The translations under genes were made by a program, and so were the position numbers. Below are positions 4,078-28,902 of a DNA stretch of 64,000 nt, one piece after another. Source of the stretch: an uncultured Pseudomonadota bacterium (GTDB taxonomy: Bacteria > Myxococcota_A > UBA796 > JAFGLY01). The notes beneath the pieces are model-generated. The model made no database searches. It was not told the DNA's origin and saw only the letters and a list, made by a program, of their open reading frames with translations. Positions within the stretch are counted from its first letter, which is position 1. Every line of letters begins with the position of its first letter. The stretch covers positions 1,592-65,591 of the forward strand of contig CALDOK010000076.1 in NCBI GenBank assembly GCA_937912125.1, given 5' to 3'.

Positions 4078-5919
4078 TCACCGCGCCGGATCGAAGGTCA
4101 GGCTGGGGGGCGTGCGCATGTCGATGGGCACCGACCCATCCCGTCGAGCGGCGCCGGAAGGGAACTCCCACGGCTCCAACGCCACCGTGGTGGCGCCGGT
4201 CCAGTCCGCCGTGCGCCAGGCCCCGGCCCCGGCAGAGCTGGCGAAGGGCGGGCCGAACAGGGCGGTGAGCGCCTGGCGCTGGCGGCTGACGGCCTGGGCC
4301 AGGCCCAGTGGATAGTGCTCGCGGTTGAGCACGATGACGGCCAAGCCCCGGTCCTGCAGGACCGCGAGATCAGCGGCGTCGAAGTCCAGCGCCCCCACAA
4401 GGCTGCCGTCCTCCACCGCCTGCAGCCCCCGCAGGAAGCTGTTGGCGGCCACGAACGCGTCCCAGGCCGGGGGCCGGACCCTGTCTACCCACAGCCCGTG
4501 GCCGTTCACCAGGGCCTTGCCGTGGGCCAGCTGGTACAGCAGCGGCTTCTGGCTCAGGGCCACCCGGGGGGACAGGGGCAGATCCAGCAGCACGTCGCCC
4601 GGCTCCTGAGCCAGGCTGGCGTAGAAGGCGGGGGGCCAGATCAGGGCGGTGCTGTGCGCCCGGACCCCTGGACCCTGGACCAGGAGAAGGACGGGACAGC
4701 TCGCCACCAGCAGCCCGGCCACGCCCCAGGAGGCCCAGACCCGCCCCAGCGCCGGCAGCGCCCGCGCCGCCAGCAGGCACAGGGCCAGGTTGCACACCAG
4801 CACATGGCGCGAGGGCCACCAGAAGCGCCGCAGCGGCGCCGCGACGCCATAGACGAGCTCGAAGGGAGAGAGCCCCCCGACCTGCAACGCCGGCCCCATG
4901 GCCAGCGCCAGGAACAGACCCCAGCAGCCGAGCAGGGCGAGGTCGAGCCAGGCTCGATCGCTCCGCCCCAAGACCAGCTTCACCACCTGAGCCAGCGCCA
5001 GGACCACCACGGTGGCGGGCAGCGCCTGCCCCACGAAGCGGCCCTGCCGGACCAGGAAGGGCAGCATGGGGTCCAGGCTGTCCCGCACAGCCTCGGGGTG
5101 GGGGAAGATCTCCTCGCCGGTGCCGGGCAGCTCGGCCCAGTGGCCCAGGTACCAGAGCAGCGGGCCGGCCACCAACACCAGGAAGCAGACAGCGAACGCC
5201 ACCACGGGCTTCCAGGGCAGGTCCCGCAGCCGGCCGCCGCGCCGCCACGCCCCCGCGCCCGCGCCCAGGGCCAGGATCCCGCCAGCCAGGATCGCGAAGA
5301 GCCCGTGGTACCAGTACAGCGCAGACGCCACCGCCAGCAGCGCCCCCGCCGCCAGCGCCCAGCGCAGCCGAGGCGCGCGCAGGAACCGAAGCCAGGCGCC
5401 GATGAACAGCAGCACCCAGAGCAGATCGGCCTGGCTGAAGCGGCCCGCGCCCAGCTCCCGCACCGCGTAGGGGCCAGCGCCCAGGGCCGCTCCCGCCAGC
5501 AGCGCCCCCGGCCAGGAGGCCCCCGCGCCCCGCGCCATCCAGCAGGCCGCCAGACCGTTGCCCACCAGCACCAAGACCAGGAAGACGTTGGCGCCCACAG
5601 GCCAGCCGAAGGCCAGGTGGAAGGGCAGGTAGAGCAAACCTTCGCCGCCGTTCCCAGCCAGGAAGGGGGCGTCGCCGACCGGCCAGTAGTAGCGGCTGTT
5701 GTGCAGCAGGCCCTCGAGGCCCACCACCCGCTCCGCCACCCACACCAGCAGCCACTGATTACCAGCGCAGTCGGGGTGCATCACGCCACAGAGCATGCCC
5801 TGACCGGGCGCCTGCCACACGGGGGCCGTGGCCAGCAGCGCGAGCCCGAGGCTGGTGACCATCGCGGCAAGCCACCACCAACGATCCGCAGCGGGGGTAC
5901 TCTCGAACGCCTGCGTCAT
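4078..5919 (-). CDS. Large polytopic membrane protein (~12 TM helices plus C-terminal soluble domain); family not recognised
   Basis: 613-aa ORF with many hydrophobic helices (LVLVLVGNGLAACW, WVLLFIGAWLRF, VVAFAVCFLVLVAGPLLWY and others) and a ~200-aa C-terminal non-membrane domain. Paralogous in layout to 5968..7692. Confidence 0.7.
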   Translation of the reverse strand: MTQAFESTPAADRWWWLAAMVTSLGLALLATAPVWQAPGQGMLCGVMHPDCAGNQWLLVWVAERVVGLEGLLHNSRYYWPVGDAPFLAGNGGEGLLYLPFHLAFGWPVGANVFLVLVLVGNGLAACWMARGAGASWPGALLAGAALGAGPYAVRELGAGRFSQADLLWVLLFIGAWLRFLRAPRLRWALAAGALLAVASALYWYHGLFAILAGGILALGAGAGAWRRGGRLRDLPWKPVVAFAVCFLVLVAGPLLWYLGHWAELPGTGEEIFPHPEAVRDSLDPMLPFLVRQGRFVGQALPATVVVLALAQVVKLVLGRSDRAWLDLALLGCWGLFLALAMGPALQVGGLSPFELVYGVAAPLRRFWWPSRHVLVCNLALCLLAARALPALGRVWASWGVAGLLVASCPVLLLVQGPGVRAHSTALIWPPAFYASLAQEPGDVLLDLPLSPRVALSQKPLLYQLAHGKALVNGHGLWVDRVRPPAWDAFVAANSFLRGLQAVEDGSLVGALDFDAADLAVLQDRGLAVIVLNREHYPLGLAQAVSRQRQALTALFGPPFASSAGAGAWRTADWTGATTVALEPWEFPSGAARRDGSVPIDMRTPPSLTFDPAR

Positions 5920-5967: not shown

Positions 5968-7692
5968 ATGTCCCCACTCCCTCCCCCCGTCCCCGCGACC
6001 CAGACCGCCCCCGCCTGGCTGCTGCCCGCGGCCTTCATCGGGCTGCTGGCCCTGGCCGCCTGGTCCTTGGTGTCCACGGGCGGTGAGCCCCTGCTGGCAT
6101 GGCGCGGAGCCGAAGTCTGGGGTCACGCCTGGACCTGGTGGTGGCACGGCGAAGCCCTCCCCGCCTGGCCCGACGGCACCAGCCTGGCCACCGGCGCCGC
6201 CTCCTGGCCTGTCATCGATCCCCTCCCCGCTTTGCTGGGCGCCGGCATCAGCCGCGCCGCTGGGCCGGTCGTCGCCTGGAACGCCATGGCCCTCGCAGGC
6301 ATCGCCGGGGCGTTCGCAGGCGGCAGGTGGCTGTCCCGACGCGTGGGCGGCAGCGGGGCCGTGGGCGGCCTGGTCCTGGCCATGGGGCCCGTGTTCACCG
6401 GCAGCCTGCTGTCGGGCTTGAGCGAAGACCTGGCCATCGGGCTGCTGGCGGTGGCGGTGGGGCTGGTGGTGAAGCCCCCCGCCCTCGGTCCCTCAGCCTC
6501 GGCCACGAGCTGGCGCTGGGCCATCGCCGCGGGCTGCTCCCTGGGGCTGCTGGCCTGGTGTGGCCCCTACCTGGCCTGGCTGGGGGCAGCGACCGCGGTG
6601 GTGGCGGGCCTGACGCACCTGATCCGGGCACCCCGCTCCTGGTCGCGCTGGCTGGTGGCCGGACTCATCGCGGCCGCCCTGGCCGTCCCACCCCTGCTGG
6701 CCCAGGGCGCCCGCGCCATCACCGGGGCAGGACACCGCAGCGGCGTCCACCTGGGCCAGGCCGAGCCCCTGTGGCAGCTCAACCCCTGGGGACAGGCCGA
6801 CCTGCTGTCCTTCCTCACCCCAGGGGCCATCGCCCTTCCGGCCGACGCCGTGATCCGACTCCACCCCACCTACCTGGGGCTGGGGGTGCTGCTGCTGGCC
6901 TCGCTGGCGGGCCGCAGCCGCTGGTGGTGGCTGCTGCTGGCTGCGCTGCTGCTGGCGCCAGGAGAGCAGCTGCACTGGCTGGGCCAGGCCCACGACCTGT
7001 CCAACCCCGCGGCCCTGGCCCTGGACTGGCTCCCGGGGGGAGCGCTGCTGAACCACCACGCCAGGCTGTTCCTGCTCGGACAGGTCGCCCTGGCGGCCCT
7101 GGCGGCCCTGGGTGCCCAGCGGCTGGCGACTCGTCCGCGCTGGCGCCCCAGGCTCGTGCTCCCCTTGGCGGCGCTGCTGGTCATGGTGGACTACGGGCTG
7201 TTGGCCCCGGTGCCATGGCCTCTGCCTGCCGCCCAGGCCCAGAGCCCAGACTTCCTCGGTGAGCTCGGGCCGCTCAACCCCGGGATGTTGCTGTGGCTGC
7301 CAACGGGGGGGCCCGGGCTCTCTCCGCAGCGGCCCCTGCTGGACCAGCGCGCCCACGGCCGGCCGCTGGCGCTGAACCCCAACCGCCCCGGAGCCCCCAC
7401 CTGGCTGCCCCGCAGCCCCCTGGGGGGCTGGCTGGCCGCGCTGGGGCGCACCCCCGGCGCACCCCCGCCCGCCGATCGAGACGTCCAGCCCCTGATCGAC
7501 CACGCGCTGCGCGTGCTGGCCGTGGCCGCCCCCCTCGACCGCGCCGTGGCCGCCCACCTGGGCCCACCCACCGTCCAGGGCCAGGACGGCGCCGCGTGGG
7601 ATCTGAACCTGCTGGCCGGTGAGCTGGCCCCCGCCACCGCCCCCCAAGCCGGTCGCTCCGGGGATATGCTGATCGAGGAGCCACAACCGTGA
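5968..7692 (+). CDS. Paralogous large polytopic membrane protein, family not recognised
   Basis: ATG at 5968, in frame with the 4315..7692 ORF, gives MSPLPPPVPATQTAPAWLLPAAFIGLLALAAW followed by >10 TM segments and a C-terminal soluble domain. The upstream 550 codons of the track ORF are antisense junk. The stop overlaps the GTG start of the next gene. Confidence 0.65.
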   Translation: MSPLPPPVPATQTAPAWLLPAAFIGLLALAAWSLVSTGGEPLLAWRGAEVWGHAWTWWWHGEALPAWPDGTSLATGAASWPVIDPLPALLGAGISRAAGPVVAWNAMALAGIAGAFAGGRWLSRRVGGSGAVGGLVLAMGPVFTGSLLSGLSEDLAIGLLAVAVGLVVKPPALGPSASATSWRWAIAAGCSLGLLAWCGPYLAWLGAATAVVAGLTHLIRAPRSWSRWLVAGLIAAALAVPPLLAQGARAITGAGHRSGVHLGQAEPLWQLNPWGQADLLSFLTPGAIALPADAVIRLHPTYLGLGVLLLASLAGRSRWWWLLLAALLLAPGEQLHWLGQAHDLSNPAALALDWLPGGALLNHHARLFLLGQVALAALAALGAQRLATRPRWRPRLVLPLAALLVMVDYGLLAPVPWPLPAAQAQSPDFLGELGPLNPGMLLWLPTGGPGLSPQRPLLDQRAHGRPLALNPNRPGAPTWLPRSPLGGWLAALGRTPGAPPPADRDVQPLIDHALRVLAVAAPLDRAVAAHLGPPTVQGQDGAAWDLNLLAGELAPATAPQAGRSGDMLIEEPQP

Positions 7693-9509
7693 TCAACGAA
7701 GCCCGCCTCACCGAGATCCTCGACCTGCTCATCGCCCGTGGCGTGATCCACCAGGGTCAGAAGCAGGACGTGCTGAACCGCGGCCGCGAGCAGGCCCGGC
7801 ACATCCTGCTGGACAAGCGCGCCGAGCTACGCCGCCTGCTGGGGCGCCAGCGGGTCAACTACCGCGTCCACGAGATCGAGCTGGTGGCCTCGTTCCGCTT
7901 CCATCGGGGCGATCGGCCCGACGAGCTGGTGGACGAAGAGGTGGTCACCCGGGTGGTGGCCGAGGCCCGTCAGATGCCCTTCGTGCACCTGGACCCCCTG
8001 GCCCTGAACTACAAGCTGGTCACAGAGACCTTCGGCGGCCCCTTCGCCGAGCGCCACATGGTCATCGCCCTCGAGGACACCCCCGAGCTGCTCACCCTGG
8101 CTATGGCCGACCCCTGGGACCAGGAGCTGCTCGACAGCATCGCGCGCTTCAAGAACAAGGCCATCAGCCCCGTAGTGGCCACCAAGTCCGAGATCCTCCA
8201 GGTCATCGTGGAGTTCCACGGTTTCCGCCGCTCCATGCGCGCGGCCGAAGAAGAGTTCCGCTCTGACCTGCCCGATCTGGGCAACCTCGAGCAGCTGTAC
8301 CGCATGAAGGGCGCAGCCGAGCTGGACGCCACCGACCAGCCCGTGGTCCAGGCCGTCTGGTACCTGCTCAACTATGCCTTCGAGAACCGCGCTTCGGACA
8401 TCCACATCGAGCCCAAGCGCGAGGAAGCCCTGGTCCGGATGCGCATCGACGGCGTGCTGCACCGCATCCACCGCCTGCCCAAGCTGGTCCACCCCGCCAT
8501 GGTCAGCCGCGTGAAGATGCTGGCCCGCATGGACATCGCCGAGCGCCGCCGACCGCAGGATGGTCGCTTCAAGACCCACCACGGCGGCGACGAGGTGGAG
8601 ATGCGGGTGAGCACCGTGCCCACCGCCTTCGGCGAGAAGGTGGTCATGCGCATCTTCGACCCGGGCATCTACGTCAAGAACGTAGACTCCATGGGCCTGT
8701 TCCAGCGCGAGCGCATGCTCCTCGAGCGCATGCTCTCCACCAAAGCCGGCATGGTGCTGGTCACCGGCCCCACCGGCAGCGGCAAGACCACCACCCTGTA
8801 CACCGCGCTCCACCACATCAACTCGCCGCGCATCAACATCTGCACCCTCGAAGACCCCATCGAGATCGTGCAAGAAGAGTTCAACCAGTTCCCCGTGCAG
8901 CCCAAGATCGGCTTCACCTTCGCCACGGCCCTGCGCACCGTGCTGCGCCAGGATCCCGACGTGGTCATGCTGGGTGAAATCCGCGATCCCGAGACCGCCG
9001 AACATGCCGTCCAGGCCGCGCTCACCGGCCACCTGGTGCTCAGCACCCTGCACACCAACGACGCCGCCTCGGCGGTCACCCGCCTGCTGGACCTCGACAT
9101 CTACCCCTTCCTGATCGCCTCGGTCCTCCAGGGCGTCATCGCCCAGCGCCTGGTGCGTCGCATCTGCCCCAACTGCGCTGTGGACGAGATCCTGAGCGAG
9201 GATCAGGTGCTCAGCCTGCGCATCGGCGGCGCCCGCGGCCGCAAGCTGGGCGTCAAGCGCGGCGCAGGCTGCATCAAGTGCCGGGGCACCGGCTACCGAG
9301 GCCGCACCGGCGTGTTCGAGGTGCTCCCCATCACCCCCCGCATCGGCAAGCTCATCGCCGATCGAGCCCCCTCGGTGGAGATCAAGAAAGAAGCGCTGAA
9401 CGACGGGATGATGACCCTGCGGGAGTACGCCATCAAGAAGATGGCCATGGGCGAGACCACCTACGAAGAGGTGCTCGCCATGACCGACGAGGTCAACGTC
9501 TACACCTAG
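7689..9509 (+). CDS. GspE/PilB-family secretion ATPase (type II/IV secretion NTPase) with N-terminal T2SSE_N-like domain
   Basis: Walker A VTGPTGSGKTTTL, Asp/His boxes and GEIRDPETAE...LVLSTLHTNDA. C-terminal tetracysteine CPNCAVDE...CIKCRGTGYRGR. GTG start overlapping the upstream stop (GTGA). Confidence 0.9.
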   Translation: MINEARLTEILDLLIARGVIHQGQKQDVLNRGREQARHILLDKRAELRRLLGRQRVNYRVHEIELVASFRFHRGDRPDELVDEEVVTRVVAEARQMPFVHLDPLALNYKLVTETFGGPFAERHMVIALEDTPELLTLAMADPWDQELLDSIARFKNKAISPVVATKSEILQVIVEFHGFRRSMRAAEEEFRSDLPDLGNLEQLYRMKGAAELDATDQPVVQAVWYLLNYAFENRASDIHIEPKREEALVRMRIDGVLHRIHRLPKLVHPAMVSRVKMLARMDIAERRRPQDGRFKTHHGGDEVEMRVSTVPTAFGEKVVMRIFDPGIYVKNVDSMGLFQRERMLLERMLSTKAGMVLVTGPTGSGKTTTLYTALHHINSPRINICTLEDPIEIVQEEFNQFPVQPKIGFTFATALRTVLRQDPDVVMLGEIRDPETAEHAVQAALTGHLVLSTLHTNDAASAVTRLLDLDIYPFLIASVLQGVIAQRLVRRICPNCAVDEILSEDQVLSLRIGGARGRKLGVKRGAGCIKCRGTGYRGRTGVFEVLPITPRIGKLIADRAPSVEIKKEALNDGMMTLREYAIKKMAMGETTYEEVLAMTDEVNVYT

Positions 9510-9587: not shown

Positions 9588-9881
9588 CTAGTGCTTGAAG
9601 ATGTCCCGCAAGTGCTGGAAGACGCCGCTCTGATCCTTGCCGGCGAGCAGCTCGAGCTCTCCCTGATCCAGCAGGACAGCGCCGCAGTCGGGGCAGACCT
9701 CGATCTCCACGCCACGGAAGACGACGGTGTTCATGTCGGCGCCACACTTGCCGCACTTGAGCCAGTGGAGCCGCTTGCGCGCCGCGAGCGCTTCTCTCTC
9801 CCGGGTCTCGCGGAGATCCTTGGCCAAGCGGGCTTTTTTCTCGGCTTCGAGCTTCTCGAAGTACTTGTTCTCTTCGCTCAT
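9588..9881 (-). CDS. zf-TFIIB-type zinc-ribbon domain protein (97 aa)
   Basis: Internal M of the track ORF: MSEENKYFEKLEAEKK...LKCGKCGADMNTVVFRGVEIEVCPDCGAVLLDQGELELL, a CxxC...CxxC ribbon plus the LDxGELExL tail of the PF13453-like family. Start overlaps the stop of the upstream gene. Confidence 0.7.
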   Translation of the reverse strand: MSEENKYFEKLEAEKKARLAKDLRETREREALAARKRLHWLKCGKCGADMNTVVFRGVEIEVCPDCGAVLLDQGELELLAGKDQSGVFQHLRDIFKH

Positions 9882-10444
9882 GGCAGCTCCCTGCTCCGGG
9901 GGATCGGGTCGATCCCCTCTATCCGATCCGGCTCGTCCACCGCGACGTCGCTGTCCGTGTCGTGGGAGGGCCCACCATCTCCCCATCCGTCCGACGCCGT
10001 CGAGGCGTCCACCAGCACGCCGCCACCGCCAGTGGTGGGGGAGCTGTCCAGGAAGCGCACCACCGCCAGGAAGGGCTGGAGGGCCGGGATGCTGTCGACG
10101 GGGCTCCAGCGCACCCCATCGGCCGAGACGAGATCGCTGGGCGCGGCCTTGCGCTCCATCACCAGGCGCCGCAGGCGATCCAGGTCCCGCACCCTGAAGT
10201 CCTGCCCCCCCCGCCGCAGCCTCAAGGGACGCCCGGCCAGGCCTTCGTCGGTGGCCTCGCCCAGATCCTGCAGGGGCGGCACGCTGGACATGCTGGAGCC
10301 CAGCGCGATCGAGCGCAGCACCCGGGCCGCGAGAGCGTCGCACTGCAAGCAGCGCGTCCGATCCTCGAGGCCGATCTCCAGCCGGGCGAGCTGTTCCTCG
10401 CTCAGCTCCAGCTCTGCGCCGCAGGCGCTGCATACCAGGACCAC
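9878..10444 (-). CDS. Zinc-ribbon (MJ0042-like) plus GYF-like (DUF4339-like) domain protein, cytoplasmic
   Basis: N-terminus MVLVCSACGAELEL...CLQC. Central DFRVRDLDRLRRLVMERKAAPSDLVSADGVRWSPVDSIPALQPF resembles the GYF-like domain. No TM segment. Confidence 0.6.
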   Translation of the reverse strand: MVLVCSACGAELELSEEQLARLEIGLEDRTRCLQCDALAARVLRSIALGSSMSSVPPLQDLGEATDEGLAGRPLRLRRGGQDFRVRDLDRLRRLVMERKAAPSDLVSADGVRWSPVDSIPALQPFLAVVRFLDSSPTTGGGGVLVDASTASDGWGDGGPSHDTDSDVAVDEPDRIEGIDPIPRSRELP

Positions 10445-10446
10445 GG

Positions 10447-12027
10447 TCAGCCCCCCGTGAGCTCCTGGAGCTTCTGCTTCACCTCGGCGTCGCCGGGGTA
10501 TGCGGCCTCGTACTGGCGGAGGTAGTCCATCGCGCCAGCCTCATCTCCGAGCTGGTCCGCGATCAGGCCCAGGAACTTCTTGGCGCGCGCGTTGCCGCCC
10601 ACGAGGGACTGGAAAACACCCTGGGCGCGCTCGGCATCCCCAGAGCCGCCTCTGCGGAACAGCGACTCGGCCAGACCCCAGCGGTACGTGGCGTTGCCCG
10701 GCTCCATCCTGCTCGCCTGGTCGTAGGCCGTCACGGCCGTGGCCCAGTTGCGCTGCTGGGCGGCCGAGCGGCCGATCCCGGCGTGGTCGGCGGCGGTGGT
10801 CTTGGCCACGTCGTTGCTGCCCTGGGAGCCGCTGGGCTGGAAGGTGGGAGCCACCGGACGGGTGGACGCGTCGGAGCAGGAGCTGGCAGGCAGCTCGCCC
10901 TTGGCGCACATCTCGGCGCGCTTGGCCGGGTCGATGGTGATGATGGGGCCCTGGATCTCTTCCTGCTGCCCGTCGGTGGGGGGCGCCACCCCCGCCGCCC
11001 GCATCTCGTCCTCGAGCTGCTGGATCAGCTTGCTCTGGAACTCCTTGGGGTCGGTGGCGGGCGGCTGCTGCGCGGTGGGGCCGGGCTCCACAGGCTGCAC
11101 AGGCTGAGGCGGCACGCGCAGGAAGAAGAACCACACCACCGCCGCCACGGCCATGACCGCTGCGGCGATGAGCCACATGTTGCGGCGGTTCTTGTCGCTG
11201 GCTGCGGCCTTGCCGTTCTTGCGATGGGTGCCGGTGGTGGGCCCGCCGTCGCGCCGCTTGGCGCGCATACGGTCGCGCTGGCGTTCCTTGAGGCTCTCGA
11301 AGGGATCCACGAAGCGGTTGTTGTCGCTGGCGGGGCCACCGGCCCGCGGGCGGGAGGGCTTGCCAGGAAGCGGGCGCGTGGAAGGCGGGGCGCCCTCGGT
11401 CTTGGCACCCGGTCGCTGGAACACCCCGGTGGAGATGTTCGAGCGCAGGCTGCCCATGCCCACCACCATGGTGGGGCCATCATCCTCGAAGGGCTCGCCC
11501 GTGTCGGCTTCTTCGTCGACGCCGCCAGCGAGCTGGTCCTCGAGCTCCTCGTAGACCTGGACGAAGTAGGCGTCGAGATCGGGAATGTCACCGATGCGGA
11601 CCCAGCTGGCGCCGTCGTGGGAGATGACGTCGTCCTCGGTGACCCGGCGATCCTGGATGTACTTGCGCAGGGTGCCGATGTCCGAGAAGTCGTAGACCAA
11701 GCCGATCTTGACCTTGACCTTCCAGGTGGAGATGCCCACCTTGCGGAAGTCGATCTGGTCGGCACGGGGGCCGGACCCCACCAAGCCCGCTGGGCTGTTG
11801 GGGTCTTGGGCCAGGGGGTTGGCCGAGCGTGCCACGGGCTGCTCGTCGGAGGACGGCTCCTCGGAATCGAGCTCGGGATCCGGCTCGGCGGGCTGCTCGT
11901 CCTGCGCCTTGTTGTACACCACGAAGACGTGCTGGCACTTGGGGCAGGTGATGCGCGCACCGCGGCCCTTGATCTTGCTGTCATCGAGCTTGTACCGCGC
12001 TGAGCAGCGCTCGCAGGTGACGATCAT
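10447..12027 (-). CDS. ZnR-GYF-TM-TPR protein (GltJ/AgmX-like architecture)
   Basis: MIVTCERCSARYKLDD...ITCPKCQHVF (MJ0042-type zinc ribbon). GYF-like IDFRKVGISTWKVKVKIGLVYDFSDIGTLRKYIQDRRVTEDDVISHDGASWVRIGDIPDLDAYF. Single TM MWLIAAAVMAVAAVVWFFFL. C-terminal TPR-like repeats (AYDQASRMEPGNATYRWGLAESLFRRGG...). Confidence 0.7.
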   Translation of the reverse strand: MIVTCERCSARYKLDDSKIKGRGARITCPKCQHVFVVYNKAQDEQPAEPDPELDSEEPSSDEQPVARSANPLAQDPNSPAGLVGSGPRADQIDFRKVGISTWKVKVKIGLVYDFSDIGTLRKYIQDRRVTEDDVISHDGASWVRIGDIPDLDAYFVQVYEELEDQLAGGVDEEADTGEPFEDDGPTMVVGMGSLRSNISTGVFQRPGAKTEGAPPSTRPLPGKPSRPRAGGPASDNNRFVDPFESLKERQRDRMRAKRRDGGPTTGTHRKNGKAAASDKNRRNMWLIAAAVMAVAAVVWFFFLRVPPQPVQPVEPGPTAQQPPATDPKEFQSKLIQQLEDEMRAAGVAPPTDGQQEEIQGPIITIDPAKRAEMCAKGELPASSCSDASTRPVAPTFQPSGSQGSNDVAKTTAADHAGIGRSAAQQRNWATAVTAYDQASRMEPGNATYRWGLAESLFRRGGSGDAERAQGVFQSLVGGNARAKKFLGLIADQLGDEAGAMDYLRQYEAAYPGDAEVKQKLQELTGG

Positions 12028-12162: not shown

Positions 12163-14457
12163 TCAGTCGACCAACACCTCGAGGCGCGCTTCTCTTACAC
12201 GCAGCTTCTTGGTGCCAAAGCGCTGGAAGAAGACCACCACCTTCAGCGAGGGGCCGCGCCCCTCGAGGGACCGCACCTCGCCGTCGCCGAACACGGGGTG
12301 GCGCACGCCGACCCCAGGACGGAAGACATCCGGAGACTCGGGGACCAGGGTGAGCCCGCCAGGCCGAGGCGCAGGCGCGGACTGTTGGTCGCGGGAGCGC
12401 ACCTGGGCCAGCAGCGCATCCAGCTTGCGGGTGGACGATGCTGGCACCGGCGGTGGGGCGGGACGAGCCCTGTGGAGGGGCTGGCCGCCCAAGGGCTGCA
12501 CAAGGTGGCGAGGCAGCTCGAGCAAGAAGGGAGACGGCCGCGCTTGCACGACTCGGCCCCCTCCGGACCAGCCCATGCCGTCGCGCACCCAGCGGCGGGC
12601 GGGCCGGCACAGGTAGAGGCGCTCCCGGGCACGGGTGAACGCCACATAGGCCAGGCGGCGTTCTTCTTCGATGTCCTCGAGGCGCTCTTCGGAGCGAGCG
12701 TGGGGAAAGACCTTCTCGACCAGACCCACCACGAAGACCAGAGGAAACTCGAGGCCCTTGGCCAGGTGGACGGTCATCAGGGTGACCTGGCCGTCGTGGT
12801 CGGGGAGGTCCTGATCGGCCGAGGCCAGGGTGGCCTGATCCAGGAAGTTGCGGAGCCGCTCGTCGTCGGGGGTGTCGGCAGGCAGGGCCTCGTCGGCGGT
12901 GCGAGCGGCGCGGGACAGGGCCTCGATGTTCTCGAGGCGGCCCTGGGCTTCGAGGGTGTCCTCAGCGCGCAAGGCTTCGACATAGCCGGTGAGCTCGGCC
13001 ACCCGCAGGATGAGCTGCGACGTAGGCAGGTCCCGGGCTTCTTCGACCAGGCGGCCGTACAGATCGAGGAAGCCACGGAAGGCCTTGGCGCTGCGGCCCT
13101 TGCCGGCGCTGGCGGCGCGCTTGGCGGACTCGAGCAGCGGCACACCGAGCTCTTCGGCCTGGGTCCGCAGCTGGGCGATGCTGGTGGCGCCGATGCCACG
13201 GGGAGGCACGTTGACGATGCGCAGGAAGGCCATGGTGTCGGAGGGGTTCACCATCAGCCGGAGCCAAGCGACCATGTCGCGCACCTCGCGCCGCTCGTAG
13301 AAGCGCCGACCGCCCACCACCACGTGGGGGACCCGAGCGTTGCCCAGGGCCTGCTCGAGGGGCCGGCTGGAGGCGTGGGTGCGGTAGAAGATGGCGATGT
13401 CGCCCGGGCGGCGCCCCGCCCGCACCTGACGACCGATCTCGTCGATCACCTTCTGAGCCTCGTCTTCCTCGTCGGAGCCCACCAGCGCGAAGACGGGGTC
13501 GCCCGCGGGCGCCTCGGTCCACAGGGTCTTCTCCTTGCGCTGGGAGTTGTGGCGCACCAAGGCGCCTGCCAGCTCGAGGATGTTGCCCGTGGAGCGATAG
13601 TTGCGCTCGAGGCGGATGGTCTTGACCTGGGGGAAGTCACGCTCGAAGTCGAGGATGTTGCGGATGTCGGCGCCGCGGAAGGCGTAGATGGACTGATCGT
13701 CGTCGCCCACCACGGCCAGGTTGTGGGGCTCCCGCCCGGCCAGGGCCTTGATGAGCCGGTACTGGGCGTGGTTGGTGTCCTGGTATTCGTCCACCAGCAG
13801 GTAGCGGAAGCGGTCGCGGTAGCGCTCGCGCACCTCGGTGTCCTGCTCGAGCAGCTGGACCATGCGGCCGACCAGGTCGTTGAAGTCGAAGGCGTTGGCG
13901 GCAACCAGAGCGCGCTGGTAGCGAGCGTAGACCTCGTCCACGCGCATGGCCATGGCGCCGGGGTCGCCCAGCAGGCCGGCGGCCACGTCTTCGGGCTCGA
14001 GCATACGGTTCTTGGCCTGATCGATGCGCGACAGGAAGGCCTTGGGCGGGAAGCGCTTGTGGTCGATCTGCAGCTCGCGCAGGATGTCGCGCACCAGGCG
14101 CTGCTGATCGTCGCTGTCGTAGATGACGAAGCTCGAGGTGTAGCCGAGCTTGGGGGCCTCGCGGCGCAGGAAGCGGGCGCAGGCGGAGTGGAAGGTGGAC
14201 ACCACGATGCGATCGGCGGCGTCGCCCACCAGCTCGGCCACGCGCTCCCGCATCTCCTGCGCCGCCTTGTTGGTGAAGGTGACCGCCAGGATGTTCCAGG
14301 GGGCGATTCCCGAATGGACCAGGTGCGCAACGCGACGGGTGAGCACGCGGGTCTTGCCCGAGCCGGCGCCAGCGAGCACGAGCAGCGGCCCCTCCAGGTG
14401 GGTGACGGCTTCGAGCTGCTCGGGGTTGAGCTGCTGGAGGTGGGAGAGCTCGCTCAC
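12163..14457 (-). CDS. uvrD: ATP-dependent DNA helicase UvrD/PcrA family
   Basis: LNPEQLEAVTHLEGPLLVLAGAGSGKTRVLTRR, TFTNKAAQEMRERV, LLVDEYQDTNHAQY, VGDDDQSIYAFRGA: all SF1 helicase motifs present. Confidence 0.9.
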   Translation of the reverse strand: MSELSHLQQLNPEQLEAVTHLEGPLLVLAGAGSGKTRVLTRRVAHLVHSGIAPWNILAVTFTNKAAQEMRERVAELVGDAADRIVVSTFHSACARFLRREAPKLGYTSSFVIYDSDDQQRLVRDILRELQIDHKRFPPKAFLSRIDQAKNRMLEPEDVAAGLLGDPGAMAMRVDEVYARYQRALVAANAFDFNDLVGRMVQLLEQDTEVRERYRDRFRYLLVDEYQDTNHAQYRLIKALAGREPHNLAVVGDDDQSIYAFRGADIRNILDFERDFPQVKTIRLERNYRSTGNILELAGALVRHNSQRKEKTLWTEAPAGDPVFALVGSDEEDEAQKVIDEIGRQVRAGRRPGDIAIFYRTHASSRPLEQALGNARVPHVVVGGRRFYERREVRDMVAWLRLMVNPSDTMAFLRIVNVPPRGIGATSIAQLRTQAEELGVPLLESAKRAASAGKGRSAKAFRGFLDLYGRLVEEARDLPTSQLILRVAELTGYVEALRAEDTLEAQGRLENIEALSRAARTADEALPADTPDDERLRNFLDQATLASADQDLPDHDGQVTLMTVHLAKGLEFPLVFVVGLVEKVFPHARSEERLEDIEEERRLAYVAFTRARERLYLCRPARRWVRDGMGWSGGGRVVQARPSPFLLELPRHLVQPLGGQPLHRARPAPPPVPASSTRKLDALLAQVRSRDQQSAPAPRPGGLTLVPESPDVFRPGVGVRHPVFGDGEVRSLEGRGPSLKVVVFFQRFGTKKLRVREARLEVLVD

Positions 14458-15890
14458 GACTGGCCCCCGTCACCGGGATCGGAGCCCGAGGAGCCAGCGG
14501 CCTTGGCCTCGAGGGCGCGGGCCTGGAACTGCTCGCGCAGGGTACGGCCGCCGTCGGTGAAGGTGACCTGGCGGGCGCGACCGATGGCGAGGGCGTCAGG
14601 GGGCACGTAGGCGGTGATGGTGCTGCCCGCCCCGAGCAAGGCCCCATCGCCCACGGTGACCGGCGCCACCAGGGAGGTGTTGGAGCCGATCAGGACGTCG
14701 CTGCCGATGATGGTGCGGTGCTTGCCGTAGCCGTCGTAGTTGCAGGTGATGGTGCCCGCGCCCACGTTGGTGCCCGCGCCGATGGTGGCGTCGCCGATGT
14801 AGGACAGGTGCGACGCCTTGACCCCTTCGGCCAGGGTGGACTTCTTGATCTCCACGAAGTTGCCGACCTTGCACCCACGCCCGATCTCGGCGCCTGGCCG
14901 CAGGTGGCTGAACGGCCCCACCTGGGCCCCCGGGCCCACCTGGGCGCCCTCGAGCACCGAGTGGGGCTTGACCACGGCCCCGGCAGCCACCACGGTGTCG
15001 CGCAGGACCGAGTAGGCCCCGATGCTGGCGCCCACGCCGATGCAGGTGTCGCCCACCAGGATCACCCCAGGCTCGAGCACGGCGTCCTGGCCGATGCACA
15101 CCCCGACCTCGACCCGGATGGTGCCCGGCCGATGCAGGGTGACCCCCGCTTCACTGTGCTCCTCGAGGATGCGGTCCTGCAGGACGTCTTCGAAGCGGGC
15201 CAGGGCCGTACGATCGTTGATGCCCGCCAGGCTGGCGGCGTCGTCGAGGCAGGTGGCGTTCAGGCGCCCCGCAGCCGCGGCCAACGCCACGGCGTCGGTG
15301 ATGTAGTACTCGCCCTTGGGGGGATGGGGCTCGAGGGAGGGCAGCACCACGTCGCGCAGCCAGGCCGCCTCGAAGGCGTAGATGCCGGCGTTGACCTCGG
15401 TGATGGCCAGCTGTTCCGGGGTGGCCTCGGAGGCCTCCACGATGCCCACCACACGGCCTTCCTGGCGCACGATGCGCCCGTAGGCGGCGGGCCGGACCAC
15501 CACCGTCGACAGCACGGTGCACAGGGCGTCGCCGTGGCCCTCGAGCAGGGCCTCGAGCATGGCGGGGCGGATCAGGGGGGCGTCGCCGGGCAACACGATG
15601 ACCGTGCCGCTCGCGGGCAGCAGATCGAGGGCGGCCCGGACCGCATCGCCGGTGCCGCGGGGCTGGTGCTGGCGGGCGCAGGGCACCCCGGGGAGCGCGG
15701 CGCGCACTCGATCTTCCTGGTGGTGGACCACGGCTGCCACGTCGCAGCCCGCAGCCTGAGCCGCAGCGGCGACCCACCCGACCATGGGCCGCCCGCACAG
15801 GGGGTGAAGCACCTTGGCAGTGGAGGAGCGCATGCGGGTGCCGAGCCCTGCGGCGAGGATGACGGCGAGGGGCTTGGGGCAGGGTGCCAT
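14454..15890 (-). CDS. glmU: Bifunctional UDP-N-acetylglucosamine pyrophosphorylase / glucosamine-1-phosphate N-acetyltransferase
   Basis: N-terminal LAVILAAGLGTRMRS nucleotidyltransferase domain plus C-terminal left-handed beta-helix hexapeptide repeats (IGAGTNVGAGTITCNYDG...). Overlaps the uvrD start by 4 nt. Confidence 0.92.
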   Translation of the reverse strand: MAPCPKPLAVILAAGLGTRMRSSTAKVLHPLCGRPMVGWVAAAAQAAGCDVAAVVHHQEDRVRAALPGVPCARQHQPRGTGDAVRAALDLLPASGTVIVLPGDAPLIRPAMLEALLEGHGDALCTVLSTVVVRPAAYGRIVRQEGRVVGIVEASEATPEQLAITEVNAGIYAFEAAWLRDVVLPSLEPHPPKGEYYITDAVALAAAAGRLNATCLDDAASLAGINDRTALARFEDVLQDRILEEHSEAGVTLHRPGTIRVEVGVCIGQDAVLEPGVILVGDTCIGVGASIGAYSVLRDTVVAAGAVVKPHSVLEGAQVGPGAQVGPFSHLRPGAEIGRGCKVGNFVEIKKSTLAEGVKASHLSYIGDATIGAGTNVGAGTITCNYDGYGKHRTIIGSDVLIGSNTSLVAPVTVGDGALLGAGSTITAYVPPDALAIGRARQVTFTDGGRTLREQFQARALEAKAAGSSGSDPGDGGQS

Positions 15891-16020
15891 GGTTCACCTG
15901 GAGGCGGGCCGAGGAGGCACCTCCTCTATCCCGGGGGGCCGTCGGCCGCAGGACAGCGGGTGACCGCTCGCAGCGGGGTGTGGCAGCGCGGTGCAGCGTT
16001 CCGCCGGGCTCGGTCCGCTG

Positions 16021-16242
16021 CAGGAACGACGCCGGTGGAGGTCGCCAGGGTCGGTGCGGGACGGCGGTCTGCGGCGGCCGGGGCCGTCCGCAGGAACGAC
16101 GCCGGTGGAGGTCGCCAGGGTCGGTGCGGGACGGCGGTCTGCGGCGGCCGGGGCCGTCCGCAGGAACGACGCCGGTGGAGGTCGCCAGGGTCGGTGCGGG
16201 ACGGCGTTCTGCGGCGGCCGGGGCCGTCCGCAGGAACGACGG
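16021..16242. repeat. 70-bp direct tandem repeat, 3.2 copies (caggaacgacgccggtggaggtcgccagggtcggtgcgggacggcggtctgcggcggccggggccgtccg)
   Basis: Copies at 16021-16090, 16091-16160 and 16161-16230 (1 mismatch, g to t), with a 12-nt partial fourth copy. Intergenic between glmU and the downstream lipoprotein gene. Track ORFs 15884..16339 and 15991..16293 only translate the repeat. Confidence 0.85.
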
Positions 16243-22489: not shown

Positions 22490-24016
22490 ATGATCACCCT
22501 GCGTGAGAACGAGTATCGCCTGCTGCAGGCCCTGGCCCAGGCCCCCGGCCCGGTCCAGGTGGCCCAGCTCGCGGCAGCGCTCGGGCTCGACCAGAGCCTG
22601 GTGCTGGCCGCCGCCGCCACCCTCGAGGAGCGCGACCTGCTGGTCCGCGACGAGCAGAGCTACACCGAGTACCGCATCGACGCCATGGGCCAGGGCTTCG
22701 CCGACCATGGACTGCCAGAGCGCCAGGTCGTGCAGGGCTTGCGTGCCGCGGGCGGCTCCTCGACCATCCCCGAGTTGCCCCAACACTGCGGCCTGAACCC
22801 GGGCGAGATCGGGCAGTGCCTGCGCTTCCTGGTGGCCAAGGGCTGGGCGCTGCGCCAGGGCAAGGACCTCACCCTCACCCCGGCGGGTCAGGCCCTGTCG
22901 GACGAGCCCGGCCCCGACGAGGCGCTGCTCGCCGCGCTGGCTCAGCGGGAGCAGGCCACCGACGCCGAGCTCCGTGCTGCCGGCGTGGACCTCGACGCCG
23001 CCGAAGCGCTGCTCCAGGGGCGCAAGGGTGCCTACAGGTCCAAGGCCCGCAGCCTGCGCTTCCTCGAGGCCACGGCCGCCGGTCGCCAGGCCGCCCCCAC
23101 AGCCCAGCTCCGCCGGCAGGTCAACATGCTCACCGGCGAGATGTTGGCCGACGGCTCCTGGCGCGACGTGGACTTCCGCCCCTACGACATGAGCGCAGGC
23201 ACCGAGCCCGCCTTCCCGGGCAAGATCCACCCCTTCCGCCGCGTGCTCGAGCAGACCCGCCGGGTGTTCCTGGAGATGGGCTTCGAGGAGATCGTCAGCC
23301 CCTTCGTCGAGTCGGGCTTCTGGGACTTCGACGCCCTGTTCCAGCCCCAGGATCACCCCGCCCGCGAGATGCAGGACACCTTCTACGTCTCCCGGCCCGC
23401 CAGCTGCGAGCTGCCGCCCACTGAGCTGGTCGAGGCCGTGCGCAACACCCACCAGGACGGCGGCGACACCGGCGGCCTGGGCTGGGGCTACACCTGGGAC
23501 GAGTCTCTGGCCCGCAAGCCGGTGCTGCGCACCCACACCACCGCCGCCACCGTGCGGGCCCTGGCCGAGAACCCCAACCCACCCCGCAAGGTCTTCTGCG
23601 TGGGCAAGGTCTTCCGCCGCGAGACCGTGGACTACAAGCACCTGCCGGTCTTCTACCAGGTCGATGGCATCATCATCGACAAGCACGCCAGCTTCGCGTC
23701 ACTGCTGGGCACCCTCGAGGCCTTCTACCGCAAGATGGGCTTCGACAAGTTCGAGTTCCGGCCCGCGTTCTTCCCCTACACCGAGCCCTCGGTGGAGATC
23801 TTCGTCTGGTTCGAGTCCAAGCAGGACTGGGTCGAGATGGGCGGCGCCGGCGTGTTCCGCCCGGAGGTCACCAAGCCCCTGGGCTGTGACGTGCCCGTGC
23901 TGGCGTGGGGTCTGGGCCTCGAGCGCCTGGCCATGTTCCGCCACCAGCTCACCGACATCCGTCAGATCTACGTCGCCGACCTGCAGTGGCTGAAGGAGGC
24001 CGAGCTATGCCGGTAA
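22490..24016 (+). CDS. pheS: Phenylalanine--tRNA ligase alpha subunit, archaeal/eukaryotic type
   Basis: 508 aa with long N-terminal winged-helix-like region, then FRRVLEQTRRVFLEMGFEE...FQPQDHPAREMQDTFY...FRPAFFPYTEPSVEIFVW...GAGVFRPEV, the class II motifs of the long-form PheS. Confidence 0.85.
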   Translation: MITLRENEYRLLQALAQAPGPVQVAQLAAALGLDQSLVLAAAATLEERDLLVRDEQSYTEYRIDAMGQGFADHGLPERQVVQGLRAAGGSSTIPELPQHCGLNPGEIGQCLRFLVAKGWALRQGKDLTLTPAGQALSDEPGPDEALLAALAQREQATDAELRAAGVDLDAAEALLQGRKGAYRSKARSLRFLEATAAGRQAAPTAQLRRQVNMLTGEMLADGSWRDVDFRPYDMSAGTEPAFPGKIHPFRRVLEQTRRVFLEMGFEEIVSPFVESGFWDFDALFQPQDHPAREMQDTFYVSRPASCELPPTELVEAVRNTHQDGGDTGGLGWGYTWDESLARKPVLRTHTTAATVRALAENPNPPRKVFCVGKVFRRETVDYKHLPVFYQVDGIIIDKHASFASLLGTLEAFYRKMGFDKFEFRPAFFPYTEPSVEIFVWFESKQDWVEMGGAGVFRPEVTKPLGCDVPVLAWGLGLERLAMFRHQLTDIRQIYVADLQWLKEAELCR

Positions 24017-25848
24017 TCGGAATCCCCGTCAAGCTCCTCACCGAGCGCCTCGAGGGCGATCTCACCCCCGACGAGCTGGTCCAGCACCTGCAGCACATCG
24101 GCTGCGACGTCGAGGGCTTCGCCACCCTGCGCCGCATCAAGTGTACCCGCTGCGGGAACATCGTAGAGATCACCGCCACCATGGACCCCCCAGTGCTCTG
24201 CAAGCGCTGCGGTATCGACTACGTCCAGCACCCCGAGCTGCGGGTGGACCTTGGCGAGAACCACGTGATCCGCATGGAGCTGCTGGCGGTCCGCCCCGAC
24301 ATGTTCGACCCGGGCGGCCTGGCCCGCACCCTGCGGGGCTACCTGGAGCAGACCACCGGCAGCCCCGAGTACGACCTGGGCGCGCCCCTGGCCCATGTGT
24401 GGGTCGACCCGGCCATGGCCACCACGGCCTGCCCCCGGCCCGCCATCGCATGCGCCGTGGCCACCAACGTGGTGCTCGACGACGACTTCATCAAGGAGTT
24501 GATGAACCTGCAGGAGAACCTGCACTGGGCCCTGGGCCGCGACCGCAAGCACGCCAGCATCGGTGTCTACGATCTCGCTGCCACCAACGGCAAGGCCTTC
24601 CGCTATCGACCCGTCGGTCGGGACGAGCTGCGCTTCGTGCCCCTGGGCTACGACCCCCAGGACCCGGCCGCGGCCATCACCCCCCAGCAGGTGCTCGAGG
24701 AGCACCCCAAGGGCGTGGAGTTCGCCCGGCTGCTGGCAGGCTTCGAGGCCTACCCCCTGCTCGAAGACAGCGACGGCGTCGTGCTGTCCATGCCCCCCAT
24801 CATCAACTCCGAGCAGACCCGGGTCACCGACGCCACCACCAGCTTCTTCATCGACGTCACCGGCACCAACCGCCGCATCGTCTCCCGCTGCCTCAACGTG
24901 CTGGTCACCTCGCTCATGGAGCTGCAGCCCGGCATCAACCTGCACCAGGTGGGCATCCAGTACGGCGACGAGGTCCTGCACACCCCGGACTTCGCGCCCC
25001 AGGTCATGGAGCTGTCCGTCCCGGCCACCGCCGGCTGGACCGGCATCCCCATGGACGCCGTCGAGCTGGTGGAGCTGCTCAACCGCATGGGCCACGACGT
25101 GGAGATCCTCGATCCCGACACCGTCCGGGTCTCCGCTCCGGCTTACCGCAACGACCTGATGAACCCCGTCGATCTCATGGAAGACGCGGCCATCGCGTTT
25201 GGCTACCACAACATCGTGCCCACCCTGGTGCCCACCATGACCGTGGGCGGCGAGCGCCCCATCGAGGGCGTCTCTGGCACCGTGCGCTCCTGCATCACCG
25301 GCCTGGGCTGGGCCGAGGTGATGACCCTGGTGCTCACCAGCGAGGCCAAGTGCTTCGAGGCCCTGCGCCGGCCGCCGCACCAGGCCTACGTGTCTCTGGC
25401 CCACCCCATCAGCCGCGACCAGACCATGCTGCGCACCAGCCTGGCGCCGGGCCTGCTCGAGACGCTGACGGTCAACGGCCACAACAAGTACCCCCAGCGG
25501 GTCTTCGAGGTCGGCGAGACCACCGAGCTCACCGACACCCAGACCGGAGCCTCCGAGCGTCGGGCCGTGGGTGGCGTGGTCATCGGCGAGCGCATCGGTG
25601 CCACCGAGGTGCGCGCCGTGGCCGAGGCCACCCTGCGCGAGCTGGGCTGGGGCATCCGCACCCAAGGCGCCGAGCTTCCCAGCTACCTGCCCGGCCGCGG
25701 GGCCATCATCTTCGCGGTCAAGGACGGCCTGGAGATCCAGGTGGGTGAGCTGGGCGAGCTGCACCCCGCCGTGCTCGAGGCCTTCGAGCTCAAGCACCCC
25801 GCCGCCATGTTCGAGATCGACCTGACCACGCTCACAGGGCTGCGCTGA
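24007..25848 (+). CDS. pheT: Phenylalanine--tRNA ligase beta subunit, archaeal/eukaryotic type
   Basis: Internal M (aa 35 of the track ORF) gives MPVIGIPVKLLTERLEGDLTPDELVQHLQHIGCDVEGF (B1 domain), overlapping the pheS stop by 10 nt. Contains an inserted CTRCGN...CKRCG zinc ribbon. ~613 aa, as in archaeal PheT. Confidence 0.8.
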   Translation: MPVIGIPVKLLTERLEGDLTPDELVQHLQHIGCDVEGFATLRRIKCTRCGNIVEITATMDPPVLCKRCGIDYVQHPELRVDLGENHVIRMELLAVRPDMFDPGGLARTLRGYLEQTTGSPEYDLGAPLAHVWVDPAMATTACPRPAIACAVATNVVLDDDFIKELMNLQENLHWALGRDRKHASIGVYDLAATNGKAFRYRPVGRDELRFVPLGYDPQDPAAAITPQQVLEEHPKGVEFARLLAGFEAYPLLEDSDGVVLSMPPIINSEQTRVTDATTSFFIDVTGTNRRIVSRCLNVLVTSLMELQPGINLHQVGIQYGDEVLHTPDFAPQVMELSVPATAGWTGIPMDAVELVELLNRMGHDVEILDPDTVRVSAPAYRNDLMNPVDLMEDAAIAFGYHNIVPTLVPTMTVGGERPIEGVSGTVRSCITGLGWAEVMTLVLTSEAKCFEALRRPPHQAYVSLAHPISRDQTMLRTSLAPGLLETLTVNGHNKYPQRVFEVGETTELTDTQTGASERRAVGGVVIGERIGATEVRAVAEATLRELGWGIRTQGAELPSYLPGRGAIIFAVKDGLEIQVGELGELHPAVLEAFELKHPAAMFEIDLTTLTGLR

Positions 25849-25959
25849 CCCTCGCGCACCGCTGTGGCTGGTGGTCGATGAACGCCCTGCCGCGGCGCGG
25901 AAGGGAGCATGCTGGCTCGTTCTGCTGCTACGATGTCGCTGCCCCCAGCCGAGGCCGCC

Positions 25960-28902
25960 ATGCGCAGCACGTTCCTCCTCTTCATCCTGCTGCTCTCCGC
26001 CTGTCGCAGCGACCCAGACAAGTCTGACACCGGCGCCCTCGACGATGCCTGCGACTGGTACGCCGACGGCGACGGCGACGGCTACGGCGACCCCGAGGTC
26101 ATGGCCAAGGGCCCGTGCGTCGACACCCAGGACGGCTGGGCTGGCAACGCCGAGGACTGCGACGACGACGACGCGGCCATCCATCCCGCCGCCACCGAGG
26201 CCTGCAACGGCTACGACGACGACTGCGACGGCAGCGTGGATGAAGGGCTGCTCACCACCTGGTACGCCGATCTCGACGGGGACGGACACGGCGATCCCGA
26301 CAGCGCGGTCGAGGCCTGCGAGCAGCCACCGGACCATGTCGAGAGCAGCGACGACTGCGACGATGGCGACCCGGACATCCATCCAGGCGCCCCGGAGCGC
26401 TGCGACGGCGTGGATGAGGACTGCGACGGCCTGGTGGACGAAGACCTGCAGACCCGCTGGTACCTGGACAGCGACGGGGATGGCTACGGCGACGCCGAGA
26501 TCGCCATCGACTCCTGCGACCCGGGCGAAGGCTGGGTGGTCGACGCCACGGACTGCGACGACGGCGCCGAGAGCATCCATCCCGAAGCGGACGAGATCTG
26601 CAACGACCTCGACGACGACTGCGACGGCCTGGTGGACGAGGATCTCGAGTCCACCTGGTACGCCGACGACGACGGCGACGGCTACGGCGACCCGGAAACC
26701 GCGGTGGCGGACTGCGCCCCCGGCGCTGGCTGGGTGCAGCCCGCTGCCGGCGAGGACTGCGACGACGCCAACTCGGCCATCAACCCCGCCGCCACCGAAG
26801 CCTGCAACGGCTACGACGACGACTGCGACGGCCTGGTTGACGATCAGGACCCGGGTGTGGCCGACAGCGCCACCTGGTACCTCGATGCCGACGGCGACGG
26901 CTACGGTGACGATGCCGCCAGCCAGCAGGCCTGCGAGCAGCCATCGGGCACCAGCGCCCTGAGCGGCGACTGCGACGACGACGACCCCGCCTACAACCCT
27001 GGCGCCACCGAGGCCGACTGCACGGATCCCAGCGACTACAACTGCGACGGATCGGTGGGCTGGGCCGACGACGATGGAGACGGCTGGGCGGCCTGCGAAG
27101 ACTGCGACGACCGCGACGCGGCGGTCAACCCGGCGGGCGTAGAGCTGTGCAACGGCGTGGACGACGACTGCGACGGATCGGTGGACGAGGACGACGCCAC
27201 CGATGCCGCCACCTGGTACGCCGACGCCGACGGTGACGGCTATGGCGACGCCGACAGCACCACCCTGGCCTGCGCAGCCCCGTCGGGCACCGTGGCCGAC
27301 GCCACCGACTGCGACGACGGCGACGCCGGCGTCAACCCCGCGGCGGCCGAGGCCTGCAACGGCGTCGACGACGACTGCGACGGATCGGTGGACGAGGGCG
27401 TGCTCTCCATCTGGTATGCGGACAGCGACGCCGACGGATACGGCGACGCTGGCGACAGCACCGAGGCCTGCTCTCAGCCCTCGGGCTCCGTCGCCGACGA
27501 CAGCGACTGCGACGATGACGACGGGACGATCAACCCCGCCGCCACCGAGACCTGCGACGGCGCCGACAACGACTGCGACGGTACCGTGGACGAGGCGGAC
27601 GCCAGCGACGCCGCCACCTGGTACCAGGATCACGACGCCGACGGCTTCGGCGATGCCAGCGCCGGCACCATCGCCTGCGACCAACCCTCCGGCGCCGTGG
27701 CGGATGACACGGACTGCGACGACGGCGAAGGCCAGGTCAACCCGGCCGCGGACGAGCTGTGCAACGGCATCGACGACGACTGCGACGGCACCATCGACAC
27801 GGGCGCGGTGGACGAGGCCTCGTGGTACGCCGACACAGACGCCGATGGCTACGGTGACCCCGGCAGCAGCACAGCTGCCTGCACCCAGCCCTCGGGCTCC
27901 GTCGCCGACGACAGCGACTGCGACGACACGGACGCGTCCATCAACCCCGCCGCCACCGAGACCTGCGACGGCGCCGACAACGACTGCGACGGCCACACCG
28001 ACGAGGACGACGCCGCGGACGCGACAGCCTGGTACGCGGACGCCGACAGCGACGGCTTCGGCGACGCCGGCGACAGCGTGACCGCCTGCGCCGCTCCCTC
28101 CAGCTATGTGGGAGACAGCACGGACTGCGACGACGCCGACGGGTCCATCAATCCCGCCGCCACCGAGACCTGCGACGGCGTGGACCAGGACTGCAGCGGC
28201 GCGCTGTCGTGGCTCGAGCAGGACGCTGACGGTGACGGGTACCTGGCCTGCGAGCTGTCCCTGTGGCTGCGCAGCGACGGCTCGATCAACAACGACCCCG
28301 CGACCAGCGGCACCTACGGCTCCAGCGAGGCCGCCGCGCTGCTGGCGGTCGAGGGCATGGACTTCGACACGGCCGACACCGCCGCCACCACGCTCACCGC
28401 CGCCCTGCTGGACAAGTACGGCCTGCTGGTGCTGCACGGCACCGCGGCCTACGGCACGCTGGACGCCAGCGAGAGCGCCGCCCTCGAGGACTGGGTGCGC
28501 GACGGCGGCAGCCTGCTCTACCTGGCCTACCACCCCAGCTCCTACACCTGCGCCATGGTCAACAGCCTGCCTTCCGCCTTCGGGCTCGGCTGCAGCGACT
28601 ACGCGAGCTACTGGAGCGGCTCGGCCACCAGCATCGTCTCCCACGCCGTCACAGCCGACATCTCCACCATCGAGGGCATGGGCGGCGAGCACTGGACCGT
28701 GGCCAGCCCCGCCCAGACCGTCGTGGACCAGGCCGGCTGGCCGGTCGTGGTCGTGCTCGAGCTCGAGGATGGCCGCGTGGTGGGCCTGGCGGACGAGTGG
28801 CCCCTGTACGACAGCGGCACGGGCAGCGCCGACATCAGCCAGGGCGACAACTGGATCCTGCTGGAGAACACCTGGGCCTGGTTGGCTGACTTCGCCCTGT
28901 GA
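25960..28902 (+). CDS. Giant lipoprotein with ~14 tandem Cys-rich Asp-rich repeats (MopE-like metal-binding motif) and a C-terminal alpha/beta domain
   Basis: Internal M gives MRSTFLLFILLLSACRSD (lipobox). Repeat unit WYADxDGDGYGDxxxxxxACxxPxGxVxDxxDCDDxDxxxNPxAxExCNGxDDDCDGxVDE, about 14 copies. The C-terminal ~230 aa are non-repetitive. Confidence 0.8.
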   Translation: MRSTFLLFILLLSACRSDPDKSDTGALDDACDWYADGDGDGYGDPEVMAKGPCVDTQDGWAGNAEDCDDDDAAIHPAATEACNGYDDDCDGSVDEGLLTTWYADLDGDGHGDPDSAVEACEQPPDHVESSDDCDDGDPDIHPGAPERCDGVDEDCDGLVDEDLQTRWYLDSDGDGYGDAEIAIDSCDPGEGWVVDATDCDDGAESIHPEADEICNDLDDDCDGLVDEDLESTWYADDDGDGYGDPETAVADCAPGAGWVQPAAGEDCDDANSAINPAATEACNGYDDDCDGLVDDQDPGVADSATWYLDADGDGYGDDAASQQACEQPSGTSALSGDCDDDDPAYNPGATEADCTDPSDYNCDGSVGWADDDGDGWAACEDCDDRDAAVNPAGVELCNGVDDDCDGSVDEDDATDAATWYADADGDGYGDADSTTLACAAPSGTVADATDCDDGDAGVNPAAAEACNGVDDDCDGSVDEGVLSIWYADSDADGYGDAGDSTEACSQPSGSVADDSDCDDDDGTINPAATETCDGADNDCDGTVDEADASDAATWYQDHDADGFGDASAGTIACDQPSGAVADDTDCDDGEGQVNPAADELCNGIDDDCDGTIDTGAVDEASWYADTDADGYGDPGSSTAACTQPSGSVADDSDCDDTDASINPAATETCDGADNDCDGHTDEDDAADATAWYADADSDGFGDAGDSVTACAAPSSYVGDSTDCDDADGSINPAATETCDGVDQDCSGALSWLEQDADGDGYLACELSLWLRSDGSINNDPATSGTYGSSEAAALLAVEGMDFDTADTAATTLTAALLDKYGLLVLHGTAAYGTLDASESAALEDWVRDGGSLLYLAYHPSSYTCAMVNSLPSAFGLGCSDYASYWSGSATSIVSHAVTADISTIEGMGGEHWTVASPAQTVVDQAGWPVVVVLELEDGRVVGLADEWPLYDSGTGSADISQGDNWILLENTWAWLADFAL

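Follow-up and report, generated by a model that had tools for sequence, protein, structure and literature searches.

Does a zinc-ribbon membrane protein with the domain order of GltJ, from the Myxococcus gliding machine, also respond to Ras-like GTPases when it is encoded outside any gliding cluster? The question arises from a stretch of 64,000 nucleotides (the window; GC content ~70%) of contig CALDOK010000076.1 (positions 1,592 to 65,591, assembly GCA_937912125.1), from an uncultured bacterium placed in Myxococcota_A by GTDB. Its minus strand carries five genes in succession: glmU, uvrD, a large gene for a protein with a zinc ribbon (ZnR), a GYF-like domain, a transmembrane (TM) helix and TPR repeats, a middle ZnR gene, and a zf-TFIIB ribbon gene (Table 1). 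A first reading of this DNA (the original prediction) had described three minus-strand ribbon genes with ATGA and 2-nt junctions, uvrD and glmU as the adjacent genes, and an absence of Glt neighbours. All of this held, and none of the window's genes belongs to a Glt/Agl family. Our comparisons nevertheless place the large protein outside the GltJ family, and its sequence relatives indicate a conserved membrane adaptor of uncultured Myxococcota, located after glmU-uvrD and distinct from GltJ.

Domain organization of the large protein and its relation to GltJ

The first 37 residues of the large protein matched PF13717 Zn_ribbon_4 (E 3e-15), TIGR02098 MJ0042_CXXC (E 3e-9) and PF13719. This is a CxxC-x19-CxxC ribbon of the MJ0042 type, above the curated cutoffs, and its cysteines were invariant in 28 of 28 relatives; a literature search on MJ0042 returned nothing useful. 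By sequence, the ribbon matched the PDB entries of ZitP (2nb9) and GltJ (7zok). The full-length PDB profile search was dominated by TPR matches and was rerun on the N-terminus only. The ribbon scored 31.7 bits with ZitP vs 28.0 bits with GltJ in the PDB profile search, and its resemblance to ZitP is no weaker than that to GltJ.

An AlphaFold2 (AF2) model of the N-terminus, built with 18 relatives, gave a ribbon with a pLDDT (predicted local distance difference test) value of ~90, a disordered linker (residues 43–85), and a beta-beta-alpha-beta-beta domain plus long helix at residues 90–171 (pLDDT >90). Foldseek against the PDB ranked the ZitP ribbon at the top, then GYF domains, including those of GIGYF2 (probability 0.99), Smy2 (0.94), an Arabidopsis protein, GIGYF1 and GltJ (7z3c, 0.84), with modest scores, as expected for a 60-residue domain. 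Since GYF structures were enriched in two methods, the models support a divergent GYF-type fold for residues 90–160, seen at fold level only, and this predicted fold is no nearer to that of GltJ than to eukaryotic GYF domains. In the full-length model, a juxtamembrane helix (242–260) was followed by a basic stretch, the TM helix (279–303) and seven TPR helices (412–523, pLDDT >95). Several TPR family matches covered residues 415–520, and the periplasmic TPR domain comprises ~3.5 repeats. The AF2 models and fold searches thus gave the arrangement of the bitopic ZnR-GYF class, with the ribbon N-terminal to a GYF fold and a membrane-associated module after it.

GltJ consists of a ZnR (1–42), a linker, a GYF domain (138–222), a TM segment (385–405) and a TonB-C-like periplasmic domain, and has no TPR (PMC11135422; PMC11761067). 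The domain order claimed in the original prediction therefore stands for the MJ0042 ribbon, disordered linker, GYF-type fold and single TM helix, but not for the periplasmic part. For comparison we used 20 GltJ proteins taken at full length from a representative library and verified by NCBIfam, a 40-aa GltJ ribbon fragment having retrieved only seven short fragments from a large protein database. The large protein scored 40.6 bits with the NCBIfam GltJ equivalog NF033761 (cutoff 450; best match at residues 1–82), vs 555–829 bits for the verified GltJ proteins. Searches for NF033768 (AgmX/PglI) and TonB_C found no match in the large protein, which has TPR instead; NF033768 was detected in 8/8 GltJ tested.

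The profile searches and the GltJ alignment that had been proposed as checks each gave a divided answer. The ribbon and TPR were recovered by profile, but Pfam GYF_2 (PF14237) gave no signal in the large protein, vs E~1e-17 in GltJ. The ribbon aligned with that of GltJ by BLASTP (38% identity over 37 aa, E 6e-8) and in the comparison of the large-protein profile with the 20 GltJ proteins (hhalign probability 96%), but in both cases it was the only region aligned (46 columns in hhalign), and hhalign restricted to the GYF region gave a probability of 0.7%.

The suggestion that the GltJ ZnR binds MglA-GTP is contradicted by nuclear magnetic resonance data, in which MglA-GTP did not interact with the isolated ZnR or GYF domain and bound the linker at L86–T107 (PMC11135422). 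That stretch of the linker is also bound by the ZnR, which later binds MglB; the GYF domain binds a proline-rich sequence of AglZ, and the N-terminal module acts as a protein-recruitment switch (PMC11135422). The MglA-binding linker motif, D[DE]EIGAVFD, was found in 0/28 relatives of the large protein vs 18/20 GltJ, leaving the notion of a Ras-like-GTPase-responsive paralogous module unsupported. A domain order like that of GltJ does not imply GTPase responsiveness.

Conservation of the family and of the gene array

All 266 homologue clusters of the large protein shared its architecture; at 90% identity the family comprises 266 clusters or more, and it spans no fewer than 124 species-level genome loci. 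Mean pairwise identity among 28 diverse members was 77% for the zinc ribbon, 74% for the GYF-like domain, 50% for the juxtamembrane helix, 36% for the TPR and 19–28% for the linkers. Constraint is therefore strongest on the cytoplasmic interaction domains. Directly upstream and on the same strand, uvrD was present in 64 of the 67 loci with sufficient flanking sequence, at a median gap of 139 nt, and glmU lay upstream in 57/64 loci. Many of the related high-GC contigs (loci L006–L075), from metagenome-assembled genomes (MAGs), carry the record titles 'uncultured Enterobacterales', 'Klebsiella pneumoniae' or 'Rickettsiales'. Such names disagree with the genes on the contigs and with sister records assigned to Myxococcota; the taxonomy in them is probably a placeholder or an error.

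In distant loci the product of the middle gene has 500–860 aa, with a ribbon, a TM helix and a C-terminal TPR; only in loci L001–L010 and L021 is it a protein of 172–203 aa without a TM helix. The forms of this gene and the synteny across loci suggest an ancestral cassette of two tandem paralogous bitopic ZnR-GYF-TM-TPR proteins and a small ribbon protein. The second paralogue has evidently been cut down to its cytoplasmic module in this lineage, and this recent truncation to a soluble form provides a natural experiment. The idea that the middle gene has no real product is effectively refuted by its GC content at third codon positions (GC3, 0.89) with a coding-type position bias, its 15 homologue clusters (51–70% identity, with conserved cysteines and an almost invariant GYF-like core), and translational coupling at both sides.

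The last gene encodes a four-cysteine ribbon (PF13453 at residues 42–78, 40.0 bits, cutoff 22) and lay downstream in the same orientation in 30/53 related loci (45–82% identity). A 281-aa open reading frame (ORF) at 9588–10433 was discarded as mechanically extended; both the homologues and the gene calls favour a 97-aa product. We know of no function for bacterial members of the zf-TFIIB family; the member described here is distinguished by its fixed place at the cassette end.

No terminator-like site was found on the minus strand inside the array, all such matches being on the plus strand. A sigma-70 promoter scan of the array found zero promoters, a result that carries no information in this organism. 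The conserved array is headed by a 381-bp gap upstream of glmU, which contains a 70-bp tandem repeat (16020–16241; 3.2 copies, 99% identical) with no other occurrence in the window and a folding z-score of only -2.1.

Table 1. Features of the ribbon-gene array and the adjacent ATPase gene, in window positions
Feature	Position	Strand	Basis or remarks
glmU	14454..15890	-	Pfam NTP_transferase + Hexapep; overlaps uvrD by 4 nt; first gene of the conserved array
uvrD	12163..14457	-	Pfam UvrD-helicase + UvrD_C
Large ZnR/GYF-like/TM/TPR gene	10447..12027	-	ORF, GC3, Pfam/NCBIfam, full-length AF2 model, homologues
Zinc ribbon (residues 1–37)	11917..12027	-	PF13717, TIGR02098, invariant cysteines, PDB matches
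Disordered linker	11761..11916	-	pLDDT <50; 19% identity; MglA-binding motif 0/28
GYF-like domain, predicted (residues 90–160)	11548..11760	-	
Cytoplasmic juxtamembrane helix (residues 238–260), RFVDPFxALKxxQRxR motif	11248..11316	-	Conserved columns F239, D241, P242, F243; AF2 helix 242–260; 50% identity
TM helix (residues 279–303)	11119..11193	-	AF2 helix; sequence RKNGKAAASDKNRRN-MWLIAAAVMAVAAVVWFFFL
TPR domain	10459..10797	-	TPR_16, TPR_19, TPR_14 matches; pLDDT >95; PDB TPR matches
Middle ZnR gene	9878..10444	-	
zf-TFIIB ribbon gene	9588..9881	-	PF13453 E 2.5e-10
GspE/PilB-type ATPase with MshEN	7689..9509	+	T2SSE E 2e-121, MshEN E 5e-14, TfpB model 613 bits vs cutoff 850

Possible functions of the large protein

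With the gene structure, domain folds, paralogy, truncation and synteny established here, we favour a bitopic protein-recruitment adaptor, a model built by analogy with GltJ and ZitP, to which as a whole we give a probability of about 0.55. The ZnR and the divergent GYF-fold domain, with a disordered linker between them, would face the cytoplasm and be joined by the single TM helix to the periplasmic TPR. The ribbon and GYF-like domain may recruit at least one conserved cytoplasmic partner to a membrane site, which the TPR domain would tie to a periplasmic or envelope partner. Against this interpretation, every relative found is a MAG sequence, and the conserved order after glmU-uvrD could stem from inherited synteny and not from co-function. 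Among the possible roles, a generic envelope or polarity adaptor ranks first, followed by a housekeeping-coupled function, a ZitP-like accessory and a GTPase-responsive switch. The second of these is an envelope or cell-cycle housekeeping factor functionally tied to its operon partners, which might for example link a membrane site to the supply of peptidoglycan precursors (GlmU) or to chromosome maintenance (UvrD). It would fit the tight gene linkage but is a much less probable option than the adaptor model, and shared inheritance might also account for that linkage.

Somewhat less probable still is a ZitP-like accessory role in a type IV filament or in a machine resembling type II secretion, in which the ribbon would anchor a cytoplasmic scaffold, the TPR would aid assembly, and the partner would be the MshEN GspE/PilB-type ATPase. 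Both by sequence and by fold, the ribbon matches ZitP best, and pilus biogenesis is under ZitP control (PMC5182063). However, the ATPase gene is a frequent, non-obligatory neighbour: it lay downstream, on the other strand, in 11/31 loci, and a further 4 loci had it upstream of glmU. It is missing near the cassette in about half of the loci with enough flank, and the glmU-uvrD linkage is far tighter. Moreover, the large protein had no DUF3426 match at E<=0.1 (Pfam) and a negligible PilW TPR match (16.6 vs 154 bits), and its neighbourhood lacked genes for PilC/GspF, secretins or pilins. The GTPase-responsive, GltJ-like switch is the least likely of these explanations. MglA and MglB are widespread in Myxococcota. 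The large protein shares with GltJ the order of ZnR, disordered linker, GYF fold and TM helix (PMC11135422) and a similar ribbon, which, being conserved, could bind MglB as that of GltJ does. These likenesses are set against the low equivalog score, the missing linker motif, the failure of the GltJ ZnR and GYF to bind MglA-GTP, unrelated GYF profiles, a ribbon that is equally or more ZitP-like, and a different C-terminal domain. A gliding role is likewise disfavoured, because of the housekeeping linkage and the lack of Glt genes in the window. A conflict-system role (GYF is mentioned in PMC7159879) was rejected; PADLOC returned nothing meaningful and no relation to defence systems.

Other genes of the window and comparison with known systems

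The ATPase gene belongs to a plus-strand pair (5968–9509), sharing an ATGA overlap with a 574-aa polytopic membrane ORF without a Pfam match. The ATPase is an orphan of the GspE/PilB type, and its MshEN domain is of the c-di-GMP type. A divergent 613-aa ORF, also without a Pfam match, lies at 4078–5919 on the minus strand. This trio is kept in many related loci, with no PilC/GspF, pilin or secretin genes nearby. Other window genes are housekeeping, including pheST, tgt, an aminotransferase and arginine decarboxylase. At 22490–25848 (+), the pheS product (508 aa as a mechanical ORF) has an N-terminal winged helix matching MarR_2 and HTH_IclR, and the pheT product is short, with the B5 and core domains only; from these features the phenylalanyl-tRNA synthetase looks like the archaeal/eukaryal type rather than the bacterial type. 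A 997-aa protein at 25909–28902 (+) has ten MopE-type putative metal-binding repeats (PF11617, E 2e-99) and a weak DUF4350 match (29.3 bits, below the 30.4-bit cutoff).

Nothing in the family contradicts expectation. The family reuses the ribbon-linker-GYF front end that works as a molecular switch in Myxococcus gliding, here with a different periplasmic output, and studying it could reveal how widely the ZnR-GYF recruitment module serves outside motility. ZitP, a bitopic polarity and pilus regulator of Caulobacter crescentus (PDB 2nb9), binds PopZ through its ribbon (PMC5182065, PMC5182063), but it has no GYF domain and carries a periplasmic DUF3426 where the large protein has TPR, and PopZ is an alphaproteobacterial partner. 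GltJ shares with the large protein ribbon cysteines at the same positions (C5, C8, C28 and C31) and a bitopic recruitment layout with a single TM helix and a periplasmic C-terminus. However, its TM helix begins at residue 385 rather than 279, the cytoplasmic region being shorter here, and it is encoded in the glt cluster, whereas the large gene follows glmU-uvrD and has a tandem paralogue. Attia et al. 2024 (PMC11135422) describe a class, found typically in myxobacteria and planctomycetes, in which the ribbon precedes a GYF domain near the N-terminus and a membrane-associated module comes next; the large protein has the same arrangement, and differs from the class as described there in its specific TPR output, tandem paralogue and fixed glmU-uvrD synteny. 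A domain-based census would probably have missed the family, because its GYF is too divergent for Pfam. The bitopic ZnR-GYF class itself is known, and the variant described here is new in its divergent GYF, TPR output, tandem paralogue and fixed synteny.
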